Shown here: positions 36,976 through 53,461 of the stretch, one piece after another
Position numbering within the stretch: position 1 is the stretch's first letter
Layout: each line of letters begins with the position of its first letter
Sequence record: NZ_CP092738.1
From: a plasmid
Direction: 5' to 3' (one strand)
DNA length: 64,000 bases
Translations under genes and position numbers: made by a program
The notes under the pieces: generated by a model
What the model was told of the DNA's origin: nothing
Database searches by the model: none
The model's input: only the letters and a program-made list of their open reading frames with translations

Positions 36976-37527
36976 TTATGATTGTATCGATGCTTTAATT
37001 TCTAAAATTTTTTTGCGTAACATTTTGGGAGAACAACCCGTAAATTTTAAACAAGCCCTATGAAAAGTTGTAATTGAGTTAAATCCGCTTTCGAAGGCAA
37101 TGTCCAAAAGCGTAAAACGTGAATTGCCAATTAAGATCAAACGTTTAGCTTCTTCTATACGATTGAAGTTTATAAAATCATTAAAACTTGTTTTAAGTCG
37201 TTTATTCAAATAATAAGAAGCCTGATGGGTAGAAAGACCTATTGCAGCCGCAAAATCAGGTAAGCGAATTTCTTCGTCTTTATAGTTTTTTTGTGCCAAA
37301 AACTCGTTTAATTTAAATTCGACTCTTTCTAGATCAATGTTTTGAAGAATATTCCTATCATTTTTGGTTTCGATTAATAGGGTTGAGCAGCTGGGAATCT
37401 TCAACGAAGACTTAAAAAAGAATGGCAGAATTTCGGCTATTGTCAAAAAATTTCGAGCGGTACCCAAAGACGTAAAATTAGATTTTACGATAAAATTCTT
37501 AATTTTTTGCATTTTAGAAACTGACAT
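36976..37527 (-). CDS. AraC-family regulator (short form; C-terminal HTH paralogous to 49540..50736)
   Basis: ...[27 protein letters not shown]...FESGFNSITTFHRACLKFTGCSP... (AraC HTH). Lacks the membrane domain of its paralog. Confidence 0.7.
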   Translation of the reverse strand: MSVSKMQKIKNFIVKSNFTSLGTARNFLTIAEILPFFFKSSLKIPSCSTLLIETKNDRNILQNIDLERVEFKLNEFLAQKNYKDEEIRLPDFAAAIGLSTHQASYYLNKRLKTSFNDFINFNRIEEAKRLILIGNSRFTLLDIAFESGFNSITTFHRACLKFTGCSPKMLRKKILEIKASIQS

Positions 37528-37643
37528 TTATATACCTATATAATGAATTTAAAATTTGAGTTTGGTCATATTGTATGATGCGTAGAGCAACATGTCAAAC
37601 TTAAAATATTGCATGAAGCAATGGTAAGAAACTTTAGAAAAAA

Positions 37644-38036
37644 ATGAAAGTAGATCAAGAAGTGGCAAAAAGATTCGAAACAGCCTTGGAATATCTTAAA
37701 GGGCACCAAGGAAAATCTCAAAATCATATTGCGAAGTCGATGGATGTAGCTTCGAGCACTCTATCAAGAATCGCTAATGGCAAGTTACCTCTTCTGAATA
37801 AAATGGCTGTTACATTTGAACATTATACGGGTATTTCTTCGACTTGGCTTTTATCTGGCGAAGGAAGTATGCTCGTAGAAGAAAAAGTTTTAAAAACATT
37901 CAGTGAAGAAGAGTTCCGCTTTTTTGTAAAGATTAAGAAAGACTCTGAATTGTTTGAACTTGTTCAAATGGTTTCCGGAATGAAAAAAGATAATTATGAA
38001 GTAATCAAAAGTTTAATCACTAAACTTAAGAAATAG
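37644..38036 (+). CDS. CI-repressor-like HTH protein
   Basis: HTH plus a WLLSGEGSM motif. Divergent from the AraC gene. Confidence 0.5.
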   Translation: MKVDQEVAKRFETALEYLKGHQGKSQNHIAKSMDVASSTLSRIANGKLPLLNKMAVTFEHYTGISSTWLLSGEGSMLVEEKVLKTFSEEEFRFFVKIKKDSELFELVQMVSGMKKDNYEVIKSLITKLKK

Positions 38037-38272
38037 ATTAATATTAACAATTACACATATAAAAGAAAAACCTTTAGGATAAAAATGGGAGTCAATTTCT
38101 TTCCAGAAAATGAATTATTGATCCAAAGAACGAAAGCTATTTTAATAAAGTTGAAAATACTTACATTTTGTTTTGAAATCTAAAAGATAAAATATTATAA
38201 ATTCTGAGTAAATTTTTTCCTTAGAGACTGAAACTATTATATAACTCTGAGTAAAATGTATAAAACAAAGGC

Positions 38273-38920
38273 TTGATTTTATTTCTAGAAATGAACATTA
38301 ATTATGACATGTCTATTAAGTTATCAGAAAGTCCTGTAAAGCTTGTTTCAGGTAACGAATCAGAGAGAGAACTAAATAGAATTAAGGATTTCGTAAATAA
38401 AATTTACGATAGCGCGGGTTATAGTAAAACCCCTTGGCGTGGTTTTAATTATGACGAATGGTCTACTTGGTTTTATTATGAACAAGATGGTGAAATTCTT
38501 GCTGTTATGCGAATTGTTGAAAAAAAACCTTGGAACTTAATACCGTTAGAGCTTGCGTTAATTGTGGATGAAGAAAAAAAATACCCTTATCGTAGATATG
38601 CAGTCATCGAAGAGAAAGTTGCGGATTGGAATTCAGTAGCTTTTGTTTCAACGCATGAAGGTTGGCGCGCAGCCAAAAAAACATTTAGGGCGGTAGCAAA
38701 ATTTTGTATCGATCAAGATTATTCAATTGTTTACGGAATGTATCCTTTAGCGCTTAAAAGTATAGGTTTGTTTTATAAAAAGTCTGGTGCTGTAGACTCA
38801 CATCGGTATTTCGATAGAGTTTTCTATCCAGGTTTCTCTTTAAAAGGTAAACCATGTATTTTGAATGTGATTGAACTAGAAAAAGAGACTTTACAGAAAA
38901 TTGCGTCAAAAGCATCTTAA
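38273..38920 (+). CDS. GNAT-fold N-acyltransferase resembling autoinducer synthase/FeeM-type N-acyl amino acid synthases (putative)
   Basis: Pattern ...GFNYDEWSTWFYYEQDGEILAVMRIVEKKP... is like the LuxI/FeeM 'DxYD...ylv..d..g.i.g..Rl.pt' core. Paralog of 52835..53461 (~45% identity by eye). Confidence 0.35.
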   Translation: MILFLEMNINYDMSIKLSESPVKLVSGNESERELNRIKDFVNKIYDSAGYSKTPWRGFNYDEWSTWFYYEQDGEILAVMRIVEKKPWNLIPLELALIVDEEKKYPYRRYAVIEEKVADWNSVAFVSTHEGWRAAKKTFRAVAKFCIDQDYSIVYGMYPLALKSIGLFYKKSGAVDSHRYFDRVFYPGFSLKGKPCILNVIELEKETLQKIASKAS

Positions 38921-51423: not shown

Positions 51424-51864
51424 ATGTATTCAATGAATACATTGTCAATAAAAAAATACCCAATGAATACTTTCAATCTTAAAACACAATCTGGAAGACT
51501 TGCATTCATAATCTCTGAGACCGGACTAACAAAAAGCCGATTCGGTGAAGAAGTGGGAATTTCTAAACAGCAAGTATCAAACATTATTTCTGGAGAAAGA
51601 GAAATATCAGATCCAGTTGCAATGGTAATTGAATATAAGTTTGGATTTAGGAAAGTATGGACTTTAACAGGAAATGGAATTAAAAAGGAACATAAAAGAA
51701 ATTCCCAAGAAATTGAAGCATTAAATTCAGATATTCAGTTACTACGAAAAATAGATCGAGTACCAGGAGCTAAAAAAATAATTGAAGACATTTTAGTTTT
51801 AGGCTCCAAGGATAGAGCTGTCATAGAAGATATGATAAAGAGGTTGAAGAAAAAAGAAGAATAG
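51424..51864 (+). CDS. CI-repressor-like HTH protein
   Basis: HTH (...TGLTKSRFGEEVGISKQQVSNIISG...) plus WTLTGNG. Confidence 0.5.
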   Translation: MYSMNTLSIKKYPMNTFNLKTQSGRLAFIISETGLTKSRFGEEVGISKQQVSNIISGEREISDPVAMVIEYKFGFRKVWTLTGNGIKKEHKRNSQEIEALNSDIQLLRKIDRVPGAKKIIEDILVLGSKDRAVIEDMIKRLKKKEE

Positions 51865-51916
51865 TATTCTATTATAAGTATATCTAAATTAAAAAATTAA
51901 ATTGTATATAAGTATC

Positions 51917-52819
51917 TTAACGTATTCTTTTTTTGTACCGATTTGCAAGGATACCAGATATATCTTCTATATCTAAATTTGTTGATTTTCGAAGTTTATA
52001 GTCTTCAATTAAAATACCTAGGGTAAACATAGATTTACTGTTTAAAAGTTTGAATCCATATTCAGGAGAATCGAGTAGGTTATATAATCCAAGAACGGGA
52101 AAAGAAAAAATTCTATTGAGTAATGGCAAACGTTTACCTTCTAAAATTTTTTCTCTTATTTCAAAAGCATCATAGTGTAAGATTGCGACTGCCCAAAGAA
52201 TAGATGATGGAAGAAGACCTAATACAGCTTCAGAGGAATAAAAATGTCCGTAAAACGGAAGAATATAAACACAAAGAATTGTAACAGTAAATGCTATGAA
52301 AGTTCCAACCGATAAAAGGAAGGCTCTAACTCTCAGGTCCCCACGGCTTTGAAAGGCATTTTTTACTAATATTGTAAAAGAAAAGGAAATGAAGATAGCA
52401 CAATATGCAATAATTAAATGATAATTATAAGTAGGTTGATAAGTAAATGAAGAGTAATCTTGAATTTTTGCAACTAAACCAGTAGCGGCAGTAAAAAATA
52501 AATAACAGAATATAATAGAATTTATAAAAAAAGTTCTACGACTTGGAATAGTATTGTTTCCAAATAAAGACCTAACAAGTGAATAAAACAAATATGGAGC
52601 AAATAAAATAGGGATTAGCATCCAATTTAAAATAATTTCTCGGAATTCAAAAGGGACAAGAAAACGGAATCCAAAACAAAGTCTCCAAATAGCTATTGAG
52701 ACACATAACCAAAAGAAATATTTTTGAACAATTCTTTGACACGGAATTCGATATACATACCATCCAAGGAATAAAAGAAAAAATCCAATAGTTATATTAT
52801 AAATAATTGTAGAATTCAT
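51917..52819 (-). CDS. polytopic membrane protein (paralog of 38901..39842)
   Basis: Shared motifs (YVYRI, REIILNW, LGLLPSSILWAVAILHYDAFEIRE). Confidence 0.55.
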   Translation of the reverse strand: MNSTIIYNITIGFFLLFLGWYVYRIPCQRIVQKYFFWLCVSIAIWRLCFGFRFLVPFEFREIILNWMLIPILFAPYLFYSLVRSLFGNNTIPSRRTFFINSIIFCYLFFTAATGLVAKIQDYSSFTYQPTYNYHLIIAYCAIFISFSFTILVKNAFQSRGDLRVRAFLLSVGTFIAFTVTILCVYILPFYGHFYSSEAVLGLLPSSILWAVAILHYDAFEIREKILEGKRLPLLNRIFSFPVLGLYNLLDSPEYGFKLLNSKSMFTLGILIEDYKLRKSTNLDIEDISGILANRYKKRIR

Positions 52820-52834
52820 GAAAATTACTCATAT

Positions 52835-53461
52835 TTAACCTATATATGATGTAATTTTTTGTAAAGACTCTTTTCTGATTTCAATAACTCTAAATTGACA
52901 AAATTCTCCATTGAGGTAAAAACCAGGAAAATACATCAAATCTGGATATTTTTGGGAATGAGAAACTCCAGCTCTAAAATATATTCTTTCGATTCCTTTT
53001 GAATCTGGATTGTACATCCCATAAACCATAGAGTAATTCTTATCTAAACAATGTTTAGCTACAGATTTGAAAAGGATAGTGCAAGCTCTTCCGCTTTTAC
53101 TTGTTGGTAAAAATGAAACTGAATTCCAATCTGCTACGTTCTCTTCTTTAACTTTGTATTGTTTAAGGGGTGGTTGTCCCCAGACTACTGCAACTTCTAA
53201 TGGAATGACGTTTTCTGGTTTTTTTTCTATTATTCTCATAGCAGCTAAAATTTCATTAGAATCTTCTACATAAAACCAAGTTGACCAAGGATCGTAATTG
53301 ATATTTTTCCACGAGGAATGGGAATATCCAGACTCAGTATAAACTTTGGATACAAAATCTTTTACTTTTTTCAATTCTTCTAATGATTCTAATCCTACTA
53401 TGGTCTTTACTTCATATTTTTCTTTTGTTTGTGTGTGGGTTTTAGTAGTTATTTGTGACAT
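52835..53461 (-). CDS. GNAT-fold N-acyltransferase, LuxI/FeeM-like (paralog of 38273..38920)
   Basis: ...NINYDPWSTWFYVEDSNEILAAMRIIEKKP... Same downstream partner arrangement. Confidence 0.35.
   Translation of the reverse strand: MSQITTKTHTQTKEKYEVKTIVGLESLEELKKVKDFVSKVYTESGYSHSSWKNINYDPWSTWFYVEDSNEILAAMRIIEKKPENVIPLEVAVVWGQPPLKQYKVKEENVADWNSVSFLPTSKSGRACTILFKSVAKHCLDKNYSMVYGMYNPDSKGIERIYFRAGVSHSQKYPDLMYFPGFYLNGEFCQFRVIEIRKESLQKITSYIG

Follow-up and report, generated by a model that had tools for sequence, protein, structure and literature searches.

Two modules on a Leptospira interrogans plasmid each pair a gene for a LuxI/FeeM-like acyltransferase (GNAT) with one for a seven-transmembrane (7TM) protein. 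They are best explained as two paralogous copies of a single mobile accessory cassette, found on Leptospira plasmids, on LE1-like phage-plasmids and in genomic islands; its conserved core is an XRE-HTH regulator plus a two-gene GNAT-7TM operon of the LBL_2463 and LIC10906 families. The cassette resembles a small-molecule signalling module of an undescribed kind more than a component of the RHS toxin system beside it, and we give the signalling explanation, taken as a whole, about an even chance.

Two paralogous modules on a Leptospira plasmid

The window, i.e., the whole 64,000-nucleotide stretch of DNA analysed here, originates from an L. interrogans plasmid and is 99–99.7% identical to pLiSL31 across both modules. 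All eight genes claimed in an earlier note on this DNA are present as open reading frames with the coordinates and strands given there. The left module consists of a short AraC-family gene (36976–37527, minus strand), HTH1 (37644–38036, plus strand), GNAT1 (38273–38920, plus strand) and the membrane protein gene TM1 (38901–39842, plus strand). The right module contains a membrane-fused AraC gene (TM-AraC, 49540–50736, minus strand), HTH2 (51424–51864, plus strand), TM2 (51917–52819, minus strand) and GNAT2 (52835–53461, minus strand). The gene strands bear out the AraC/HTH divergence described for either side, and the presumed paralogy is confirmed by identities of 50% between GNAT1 and GNAT2 (E 3e-68) and 41% between TM1 and TM2 (E 1e-68). 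The earlier picture of modules bracketing the toxin array has the gene positions and strands right, but the left module is in the interior of the RHS locus: it has the main RHS gene and the accompanying immunity gene on one side and the first orphan fragment on the other, and a 7005-nt direct duplication encloses it.

Because homologues begin there, GNAT1 likely starts at ATG 38309 (MSIKLSE...) and TM1 probably at ATG 38937 (MFEDNLL...). With these revised starts, the left GNAT-TM gap becomes like the right one, 15–16 nt, in keeping with the proposed pairing of the acyltransferase with a polytopic partner in the same orientation. HTH2 probably starts at 51463, 13 codons downstream of the start of its open reading frame, since the annotated length of a near-identical plasmid gene is 402 nt. 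PADLOC models returned only weak HTH-type matches to the cassette proteins, with no defence system and no toxin- or TA-family match.

FeeM and LuxI-type synthases as the nearest folds to the acyltransferase

Both acyltransferases are full-length members of the NCBIfam LBL_2463 family (NF047533, 258–267 bits; E 3e-77 for GNAT1). They show the mixed alpha/beta core of the GNAT fold with the beta4-alpha3 cofactor site, and FeeM is the top structural match; this supports the GNAT/LuxI-like fold suggested earlier, FeeM and LuxI-type synthases being the closest folds. In profile-profile comparison, the GNAT profile matched LuxI-type sequences with a probability of 85% (E 6e-6), in an alignment that sets the invariant residues D57 and R76 opposite the Asp and Arg of LuxI. 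Among 38 paralogues, 24 residues are invariant, all of which GNAT1 keeps, and R76 and E89 are unchanged even among relatives at about 20% identity.

The profile searches recommended in the earlier note are consistent with this fold only below the gathering thresholds. For Autoind_synth (PF00765), GNAT2 scored 11.6 bits (E 0.2, cut-off 24) and GNAT1 had no match; for FeeM (PF21926), GNAT2 reached 14.9 bits against a threshold of 27, and the best score among the relatives was 20.7 bits, also below 27, with E < 0.01 in 8 of 40. These sub-threshold scores count against a signalling role. A sequence-level search of the PDB with the enzyme gave no match.

The 7TM partner belongs to a sensor-type family

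TM1 and TM2 are full-length members of the NCBIfam LIC10906 family (NF047679, 343–350 bits; E 1e-102 for TM1). Both also exceed the cut-off of 28.6 bits for Pfam HisKA_7TM (PF16927), TM1 with 35.1 bits and TM2 with 49.6 bits, and the matches cover model positions 2–222 of 224. The proteins have seven TM helices with the N-terminus outside and the C-terminus inside, and the predicted model is a GPCR-like 7TM bundle with no transporter among its top structural matches. The family is thus the sensor-type HisKA_7TM and not a housekeeping family, which the earlier note had named as an outcome that would speak against its proposal. Neither protein carries a HisKA, HATPase_c or GGDEF output domain; both end in a tail of 86 residues, basic and cytoplasmic in TM2, that has no domain match. 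The lack of a recognised output domain in the Leptospira 7TM protein is a further point against signalling.

HTH regulators and a conserved palindrome at the operon start

With 26.7 bits, HTH2 passes the Pfam HTH_3 cut-off of 23, and HTH1 stays just below it (19.6 bits). The two XRE/CI-like proteins share 22% identity (E 4e-6), and one iterated profile family recovers both among 51 open reading frames, nearly all of which adjoin GNAT-7TM pairs. The absence of an S24 peptidase domain indicates that they are not of the cleavable CI/LexA type. A same-family HTH gene is found within 1.5 kb in 35 of 40 Leptospira instances of the cassette. The HTH gene is convergent and downstream in the type-A layout and directly upstream of GNAT in the type-B layout. 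The HTH also occurs at locus L030 and is fused to a HisKA domain at locus L009.

The best sigma-70-like promoter in the right module (53468–53495, minus strand; TTGAAA, 16 nt, TG-n-CATAAT) has 10 of 12 matches and an extended TG, and the -35 TTGAnn and the spacing are kept across diverged cassettes. As the -10 element ends 6 nt ahead of the GNAT2 ATG, a leaderless GNAT2-TM2 mRNA is predicted. A perfect palindrome, TGTGACATAA-N5-TTATGTCACA (53454–53478), lies over the -10 element and the GNAT2 start codon as a candidate operator; it occurs once in the window, at this GNAT start, with none expected by chance. Most cassettes carry a GTGACATAAT-N-ATTATGTCAC palindrome over the -10 element and the GNAT start codon. 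In 18 loci the strict pattern is present in exactly one copy, located at the GNAT start; variants are found in most cassettes, and the element persists between cassettes whose proteins are just 44–60% identical. Its half-site spacing varies from 7 to 10 nt, which is atypical for a dimeric repressor. The divergence of the HTH proteins (22–33% identity) against a near-constant palindrome fits poorly with simple repressor-operator co-evolution. Another perfect palindrome with 12-nt arms (51421–51445; none expected by chance) at the 5' end of HTH2 is a possible lineage-specific operator that is not conserved in other cassettes.

AraC regulators and a small associated protein

Both AraC proteins contain a C-terminal double HTH above the Pfam HTH_18/HTH_AraC thresholds. 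The left regulator, divergent from HTH1, comprises 183 residues (HTH_18, E 2.5e-15) without a hydrophobic or TM segment, and an annotated gene of an L. noguchii plasmid matches it in size and place. The 398-residue TM-AraC joins a polytopic N-terminal domain of about 220 residues to the AraC HTH (HTH_18 at residues 298–374), and the two proteins are 48% identical over the C-terminal DNA-binding 143 residues only. The N-terminal part of TM-AraC has five clear TM segments, up to seven possible, and no detectable kinship to the LIC10906 7TM protein (hhalign probability 1.5%).

The right module contains an additional gene between HTH2 and TM-AraC (50756–50983, minus strand). It encodes a 75-residue LIMLP_19325-family protein (NF047688, E 3.6e-30) and lies directly upstream of TM-AraC on the same strand; the family adjoins AraC genes in many loci, and LIMLP_19320 and LIMLP_19325 are induced together in a perRB mutant (PMC8638851). 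The membrane-fused AraC had been proposed as a part of the circuit, but it is not a core component, being located within 4.5 kb in only 17 of 40 Leptospira instances. Its family, with at least 199 Leptospira clusters, is far larger than the GNAT family. The small protein and the membrane-fused AraC are best explained as a second regulatory unit, often juxtaposed but separable.

Distribution and distant relatives

The core of XRE-HTH, GNAT and 7TM is found in 99 Leptospira plasmid records, in LE1-like phage-plasmids and in chromosomes, often several times per replicon as diverging paralogues. GNAT adjoins 7TM in 39 of 40 Leptospira instances. The two proteins co-diverge (r = 0.90; Mantel test, 0 of 5000 permutations), as linkage alone would predict for adjacent genes. 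The partner is again HisKA_7TM in five independent places beyond Leptospira and at one divergent locus on an L. broomii chromosome (L040). Three such relatives have a kinase-type partner: complete HisKA-HATPase kinases at L009 and L010, both with response regulators close by, and a 7TM-GAF protein truncated where the contig ends at L041. The presence of a complete HisKA_7TM histidine kinase after the enzyme in distant relatives strengthens the signalling reading. Our literature search found no paper describing this gene arrangement, in agreement with the earlier note, which did not recognise it as a described system.

A proposed signalling circuit and its alternatives

A lipid-like signal synthase with its cognate membrane receptor and a repressor is the best reading of the cassette, and one that we hold with as much doubt as confidence. 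The expression changes of LIC10905, LIC10906 and LIMLP_04325 described below also count in its favour. The acyltransferase would transfer an acyl group from acyl-ACP or acyl-CoA to the nitrogen of a small amine or amino acid, giving a hydrophobic signal that resembles an AHL or an N-acyl amino acid. The cognate 7TM protein may bind this signal within the membrane and, by way of its conserved TM6-TM7 region and its cytoplasmic tail, relay the information to the neighbouring HTH repressor, or, where the partner is of the kinase type, to a response regulator instead. By acting at the palindrome over the synthase operon's -10 element and start codon, the repressor could close an autoregulatory loop. 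From the small-molecule circuit put forward earlier, the synthase-like enzyme and the sensor-family partner are retained, and the dedication to RHS and the AraC regulator as a core part are not.

FeeM-like enzymes from soil DNA make antibiotics or surfactants of the long-chain N-acyl amino acid type. The cassette enzyme might do likewise, with the 7TM protein exporting the product or protecting the producer; the cassette would be a weapon against competitors and would move on plasmids together with RHS toxins. FeeM as the best structural match agrees with this, as do the numerous diverging paralogues per replicon and the location of plasmid cassettes amid polymorphic-toxin/immunity genes, TA systems and defence genes. 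We nevertheless regard an antimicrobial lipid as unlikely: the receptor-like fold has top matches without a transporter, the partner's family is the sensor end of histidine kinases, with a complete kinase and response regulators in distant relatives, and neither PADLOC nor toxin families gave a match.

Somewhat less probable still is remodelling of the envelope by an accessory (moron) gene of phage-plasmids, in which GNAT would acylate a membrane aminolipid or envelope component by OlsB-like chemistry while anchored to or partnered by the 7TM protein, altering the surface, e.g., for superinfection exclusion or host adaptation. The carriage by LE1-like phage-plasmids and plasmids and a faint Acetyltransf_5 match in one relative point in this direction. 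So do expression shifts under host-like conditions, where LIC10905 and LIC10906 transcripts were 19.5-fold and 3.6-fold PerRA/PerRB-dependent in a host-like chamber (PMC8638967), and in peroxide-regulator mutants, LIMLP_04325 being up-regulated in a perRA mutant and in a perRB mutant (PMC8638851). However, a lipid-synthesis partner such as OlsA is absent, three distant relatives have kinase-type partners (two of them complete kinases), and a dedicated adjacent repressor with an operator-like palindrome suggests a regulated signalling loop, not constitutive lipid synthesis.

The original proposal, a signalling circuit dedicated to the RHS/orphan toxin array, now appears improbable to us. It could work through AraC acting on the array or through read-through from the left HTH-GNAT-7TM genes into the orphan cassettes, as TM1 is co-directional with the adjacent orphan fragment and no terminator-like site separates them. 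In 12 of 40 Leptospira instances there is RHS core sequence no more than 10 kb away. On lcp2 and Langkawi p1, Imm40 or polymorphic-toxin orphans directly adjoin the AraC end, and an L. noguchii plasmid with a different toxin tip has the left module in the same place, flanked by the main RHS gene and its immunity gene on one side and by the first orphan on the other. Yet RHS is absent from most instances, from all chromosomal LIC10905-type loci and from all non-Leptospira relatives. The pairs thus occur without RHS on chromosomes (L005–L008), other plasmids and LE1-like phage-plasmids and in other phyla, which contradicts the specific tie to the toxin locus, and the palindrome in the window is found solely at the GNAT start. 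The shared layout may be inherited, since the sampled plasmids all belong to one replicon cluster (rep_cluster_216); the local link on these plasmids could be functional or a matter of inherited synteny. The RHS array is best explained as lying next to the cassette in this plasmid lineage without belonging to it.

A GNAT-type toxin-antitoxin unit, blocking translation by acetylating charged tRNA with the HTH as antitoxin and repressor, is hardly credible despite the HTH directly 5' of GNAT and the promoter palindrome in the type-B layout and other TA pairs around the plasmid location, because the fold is nearest to FeeM/LuxI and not to the small tRNA-acetylating toxins, the HTH is convergent and downstream in the type-A layout, its NCBIfam antitoxin (HigA-type) matches are far under the cut-offs, relatives are linked to kinases, and the invariant partner is the 7TM protein, unlike in units where a small GNAT toxin overlaps an upstream RHH/DUF1778 or HTH antitoxin.

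Comparison with known systems

The signalling cassette differs from LuxI/LuxR quorum sensing by AHLs in its enzyme, which is below the Autoind_synth threshold, in its 7TM membrane partner and in its regulators, which are of the XRE and AraC types; Pfam and NCBIfam detected no LuxR-type receptor (autoinducer-binding domain plus GerE HTH) among the cassette proteins. It is set apart from the FeeM and other N-acyl amino acid synthases by the sub-threshold matches (at best 20.7 against 27 bits) and by the strict pairing with HisKA_7TM, which is not known to have been described for that family. Neither an acyl carrier protein nor an exosortase or tailoring gene lies near the cassette; the long-chain N-acyl amino acid synthases related to FeeM include exosortase-associated acyltransferases. 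The NCBIfam models NF047533 and NF047679 only name the two families, with no function, pairing or mechanism attached. HisKA_7TM sensor kinases have the C-terminal HisKA and HATPase_c output that is present in the L009 and L010 partners and absent from the window proteins.

Communication genes borne by phages and plasmids include arbitrium, Rap-Phr, TraI/TraR, VqmA of phage VP882 and the agr genes of phiCDHM1, which use peptides or cytoplasmic receptors of the LuxR or VqmA type. Like these, the cassette is accessory cargo with a putative synthase-receptor-repressor set in several diverging copies, but to our knowledge none of them uses a GNAT and 7TM pair.

In gene logic, the cassette resembles LuxM/LuxN, AinS/AinR, CqsA/CqsS and LqsA/LqsS, in which a signal synthase is encoded beside a polytopic sensor kinase for a hydrophobic autoinducer. 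Those systems differ from the cassette in synthase fold and in the TM domain of the receptor; relatives of the cassette at L009, L010 and L041 nevertheless show the same order of a synthase-like GNAT followed by a kinase-type HisKA_7TM sensor, with response regulators by the first two. In Leptospira, the receptor would have lost, or never had, the kinase and would be linked to an XRE-type repressor instead.

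The Two Modules of the Plasmid

The earlier note proposed that two paralogous modules, each combining an acyltransferase and a membrane protein with AraC-type and HTH regulators, form a signalling circuit tied to the RHS orphan toxin array. Every gene it named is present in the ORF list with the coordinates and strands it claimed. The left module consists of AraC (36976-37527(-)), HTH1 (37644-38036(+)), GNAT1 (38273-38920(+)) and TM1 (38901-39842(+)), and the right module of the membrane-fused TM-AraC (49540-50736(-)), HTH2 (51424-51864(+)), TM2 (51917-52819(-)) and GNAT2 (52835-53461(-)). 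The paralogy is also borne out by pairwise comparison of the left with the right module, with identities of 50% for the acyltransferases and 41% for the membrane proteins; the DNA-binding parts of the AraC pair share 48% and the HTH pair 22% identity. Pfam detected HTH_18/HTH_AraC domains in both AraC proteins and HTH_3 over the threshold in HTH2 and slightly under it in HTH1. NCBIfam assigned the putative acyltransferases to the “LBL_2463 family” and the membrane proteins to the “LIC10906 family” with E-values of 1e-77 to 1e-105, and identified an additional 75-residue LIMLP_19325-family gene (50756-50983(-)) ahead of the AraC gene in the right module. Homologues indicate that GNAT1 and TM1 would start at 38309 and 38937, respectively, giving a gap of 15–16 nt between the enzyme and membrane protein genes in both modules.

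The left AraC protein comprises 183 residues without transmembrane segments. It is a stable short paralogue and not a fresh truncation, because a Leptospira noguchii plasmid carries a gene of equal size at the same place. Between HTH2 and the LIMLP_19325-family gene lies a weakly conserved, possibly coding small ORF (51238-51372(-)), sharing 53% identity over 45 aligned residues with a 64-residue ORF in L001, another of the fetched loci. The HTH protein of the lcp2 plasmid (L038, 10558-10959) showed a faint sub-threshold match to an RsaL-like HTH domain (E 0.019), which we regard as a lead only. In Pseudomonas, RsaL represses the promoter of the lasI synthase gene.

A Conserved Pair of Enzyme and Membrane Protein

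Mapping of the cassette proteins covered 43 fetched loci, which hold 40 Leptospira instances, orthologous copies included. The enzyme and seven-helix membrane protein (7TM) genes are adjacent and co-oriented in 39 of these 40 instances, and an HTH gene of one iterated family lies within 1.5 kb in 35/40. The small protein is found nearby in 22 and an RHS core within 10 kb in 12 of the 40. The TM-AraC, which the earlier note had placed in the circuit, falls outside the core, as it is nearby in only 17/40 instances and belongs to a far bigger family of at least 199 clusters that is found also without the GNAT-7TM pair. The right module has the type A layout (GNAT>, 7TM>, <HTH, small>, AraC>), and the left module the type B layout (<AraC, <small, HTH>, GNAT>, 7TM>), except that its AraC is short and the small gene absent; the sole difference between the two types is the inversion of the GNAT-7TM pair. 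Among 23 non-redundant cassettes, the identities of enzyme and 7TM protein co-vary closely (r = 0.90; Mantel test, 0 of 5000 permutations), whereas the co-variation of the HTH protein is much lower (r = 0.41).

The Putative Acyltransferase and Its Membrane Partner

An AlphaFold model of the enzyme built from 38 paralogues was confident (pLDDT 87.4), and its top Foldseek TM-scores were to FeeM. The family profile gave no match in the PDB at E ≤ 10, and a broader profile and one distant member matched only the generic GNAT C-terminal motif there. Only 57 proteins were recovered when 1.84 billion representatives were searched exhaustively with the profile. Profile-profile comparison with LuxI-type enzymes, represented by four sequences recovered from PDB alignments, reached a probability of 85% (E 6e-6), aligning the LuxI Asp and Arg with the invariant D57 and R76. 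GNAT1 and GNAT2 keep all 24 residues that are invariant across the paralogues, of which R76 and E89 do not vary even in relatives that share about 20% identity. We thus regard the enzyme as a GNAT of the LuxI/FeeM structural type that is probably active.

Both membrane proteins score over the threshold of HisKA_7TM, described in Pfam as “N-terminal 7TM region of histidine kinase.” From hydropathy and the positive-inside rule, the 7TM protein is predicted to span the membrane seven times, its N terminus lying outside and its basic tail of 86 residues inside. Conservation is highest in TM6, TM7 and the proximal tail and lowest in TM4, ICL2 and ECL2; outer and inner leaflet portions of the helices, compared as a possible ligand side, did not differ (p = 0.59). 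The 7TM protein contains no kinase or other output domain. A role of the H215 motif (AILHYDAF) as cryptic phospho-acceptor was rejected, because its counterpart in the alignment with ordinary HisKA_7TM domains is the motif that ends TM7 and not an H-box. The transmembrane domain of the AraC protein was also rejected as a paralogue of the LIC10906 family (hhalign probability 1.5%). We know of no ligand assigned to the HisKA_7TM sensor domain, and the only two papers found to mention this domain are domain surveys.

Gene Neighborhoods in Distant Relatives

The strongest clue to function is deep synteny. We examined six distant relatives, five independent ones from outside Leptospira and one divergent chromosomal copy of L. 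broomii, and the neighbor of the enzyme is a HisKA_7TM protein in all six. At two of the non-Leptospira loci, L009 and L010, the neighbor is a complete kinase (7TM-(GAF)-HisKA-HATPase), next to which response regulators are encoded; L009 also has a divergently transcribed HTH_3-HisKA fusion. A third locus (L041) has a kinase-type sensor partner, a 7TM-GAF protein cut by the contig end. The gene order HTH_3, GNAT, 7TM is found at locus L030, and two 7TM genes flank the enzyme in a Margulisiibacteriota MAG; a further contig (L042) was uninformative. Such a link, in several phyla, between an enzyme of signal-synthase fold and the sensor end of histidine kinases is what one would expect of a synthase and its receptor. 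On the metagenome contig L010 (8001-16780), the pair of GNAT and HisKA_7TM histidine kinase lies directly 5′ of a Cas12a-Cas4-Cas1-Cas2 locus.

A Palindrome at the Enzyme Start

GNAT2 starts inside a perfect palindrome, TGTGACATAA-N5-TTATGTCACA (53454-53478), with none expected by chance. The strict form GTGACATA-N5-12-TATGTCAC occurs in 18 loci, exactly once in each and at the enzyme start codon, and relaxed forms accompany 31/40 Leptospira instances, including cassettes whose proteins are only 44–60% identical; the left module has a degenerate version only. The left arm constitutes an extended -10 element (TG-n-CATAAT) located 16–17 nt past a conserved TTGAnn, and the right arm contains the ATG, which explains the “MS” N termini shared by the enzymes and predicts a leaderless mRNA. 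The cassettes of L035, an LE1-like prophage of L. broomii (KF114879), keep the promoter/start arrangement (GACATAAT, 7 nt and ATG) but not the palindrome's right arm.

We infer that the palindrome is a candidate operator, most likely bound by the adjacent HTH protein. However, three features call for caution: the site is nearly constant, the HTH proteins have diverged strongly, and the spacing of the half-sites varies. No further palindromes or half-sites suggesting a regulon were found in the window except the GNAT2 site. Another perfect palindrome with 12-nt arms, ACAATGTATTCA-A-TGAATACATTGT, lies at the 5′ end of HTH2 (51421-51445); we rejected it as a shared operator, since only near-identical L. 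interrogans plasmids have it and other cassettes do not. Besides these two, the window has just three perfect palindromes whose arms reach 10 nt or more and are not purely A/T (269-295, 24203-24230 and 58319-58339), the second of which, 3′ of a ParA/ParB-like gene pair, could be a partition site.

Distribution on Mobile Elements

The window encodes ParA and Rpn/PDDEXK transposases. L. interrogans plasmids match its right module, together with the adjoining umuD-umuC-SRAP genes, at 99.3% identity, and plasmid pLiSL31, which holds both modules, matches its left module at 99.7% identity. A tblastn search of plasmid records located the acyltransferase at 160 places in 99 Leptospira records and on no plasmid of another genus; tblastn also found it in five LE1-like Leptospira phage records. 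One of these, the prophage L035, carries two or three tandem GNAT-7TM-HTH cassettes (7070-14313) beside parAB and a methyltransferase gene, and chromosomal copies exist, e.g., the LIC10905/LIC10906 locus.

Another member of the cassette HTH family (22106-22513(+)) is encoded directly 5′ of the partition genes (ParA, 22876-23613), with an equivalent in pLiSL31 (L034, 40025-40420). The umuD-umuC-SRAP operon (53684-56061) is divergent from GNAT2, and the trio recurs beside cassettes in three other loci (L014, L017 and L021). SOS control of GNAT2 was rejected, because the intergenic region between umuD and GNAT2 lacks the TTTGN5CAAA box, of which the window contains two, a chance level. PADLOC defence models returned nothing useful for the cassette proteins.

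To our knowledge, no cell-cell signalling system has been characterized in Leptospira. The cassette genes are expressed and respond to the virulence regulators PerRA and PerRB: in a perRA/perRB double mutant in dialysis membrane chambers, the LIC10905 and LIC10906 transcripts were 19.5-fold and 3.6-fold lower, respectively (PMC8638967), and LIMLP_04325 was up-regulated in both the perRA and the perRB single mutants (PMC8638851). The AraC/small-protein pair LIMLP_19320/19325 was co-induced in the perRB mutant and resides on an excisable island able to replicate as a plasmid (PMC8638851). In a 2026 paper, C8-AHL-like material was described from L. meyeri, no synthase was named, and Leptospira was stated to have no LuxI gene (PMC13515436). 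We rejected a tie to that report, because neither the named matches nor the original phage-match set included a member of the enzyme family from a saprophytic species.

Candidate Function and Relation to the RHS Locus

The best reading of the cassette is a putative small-molecule signalling module, to which we would give an even chance of being right and which is now better supported than from the sequence alone. The interpretation of the earlier note is supported in part, shorn of the AraC protein as a core component and of a role specific to RHS. In pathogenic and intermediate Leptospira, the strict pairing of an enzyme of LuxI/FeeM fold with a GPCR-like sensor offers a concrete candidate for a signalling module; the pairing suggests a ligand class for the HisKA_7TM domain, and the carriage of the cassette points to small-molecule communication borne by phage-plasmids.

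More speculatively, and on balance unlikely, the cassettes may be private chemical channels of Leptospira plasmids and phage-plasmids, with every diverging GNAT-7TM pair producing and detecting a lipid-like signal of its own (“pherotype”). The element could then gauge the number of its copies or kin and switch the behavior of the plasmid or prophage, or the linked toxin/immunity genes. If so, the kinase-fused pairs in other phyla would represent a new and widespread quorum-sensing architecture, and the orphan HisKA_7TM sensor domain would gain its first ligand class.

Among the alternatives to signalling, production of an antimicrobial lipid together with immunity appears rather improbable, and remodelling of the envelope a still poorer candidate. 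We also doubt that the cassette is a dedicated controller of the RHS locus. The RHS 3′ core is directly duplicated (33339-35693 and 40344-42698, offset 7005 nt, 95–99% identity), with further copies at 43825 and 46077; this duplication gives rise to the orphan array and puts the left cassette within the RHS locus. Lying inside the 7005-nt direct duplication, the left module has the main RHS gene and its immunity gene on one side and, on the other, the first orphan fragment, with which TM1 is co-directional; as no terminator-like site was found within 39842-40407, read-through from TM1 into the orphan toxin/immunity genes is possible. The L. noguchii plasmid shows the same layout with another toxin tip and an Imm53 gene, orphan toxin/immunity genes abut the AraC end in lcp2 and Langkawi p1, and the linkage recurs within the rep_cluster_216 plasmid lineage. 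However, it is absent at the chromosomal copies, many other loci and all distant relatives. We treat RHS as a neighbor of a mobile plasmid/phage-plasmid cassette, not as the target of an RHS-specific device. On the 3′ side of the orphan toxins, repeated small ORFs with signal-peptide-like N termini (47219-48896; families D3 and D5, 73–99% identity) presumably form an immunity-gene array. A GNAT toxin-antitoxin pair seems very improbable.

Returning to the small-molecule signalling module, the earlier note did not recognize the arrangement as a described system, and we likewise found no description of the pair; both protein families are catalogued by name only. The enzyme resembles FeeM in its fold and LuxI in the Asp and Arg aligned by profile, but its sequence falls under the Pfam thresholds of both FeeM and Autoind_synth, and it is not filed under either curated family. 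Signalling by a synthase and a membrane receptor is already known in kind.
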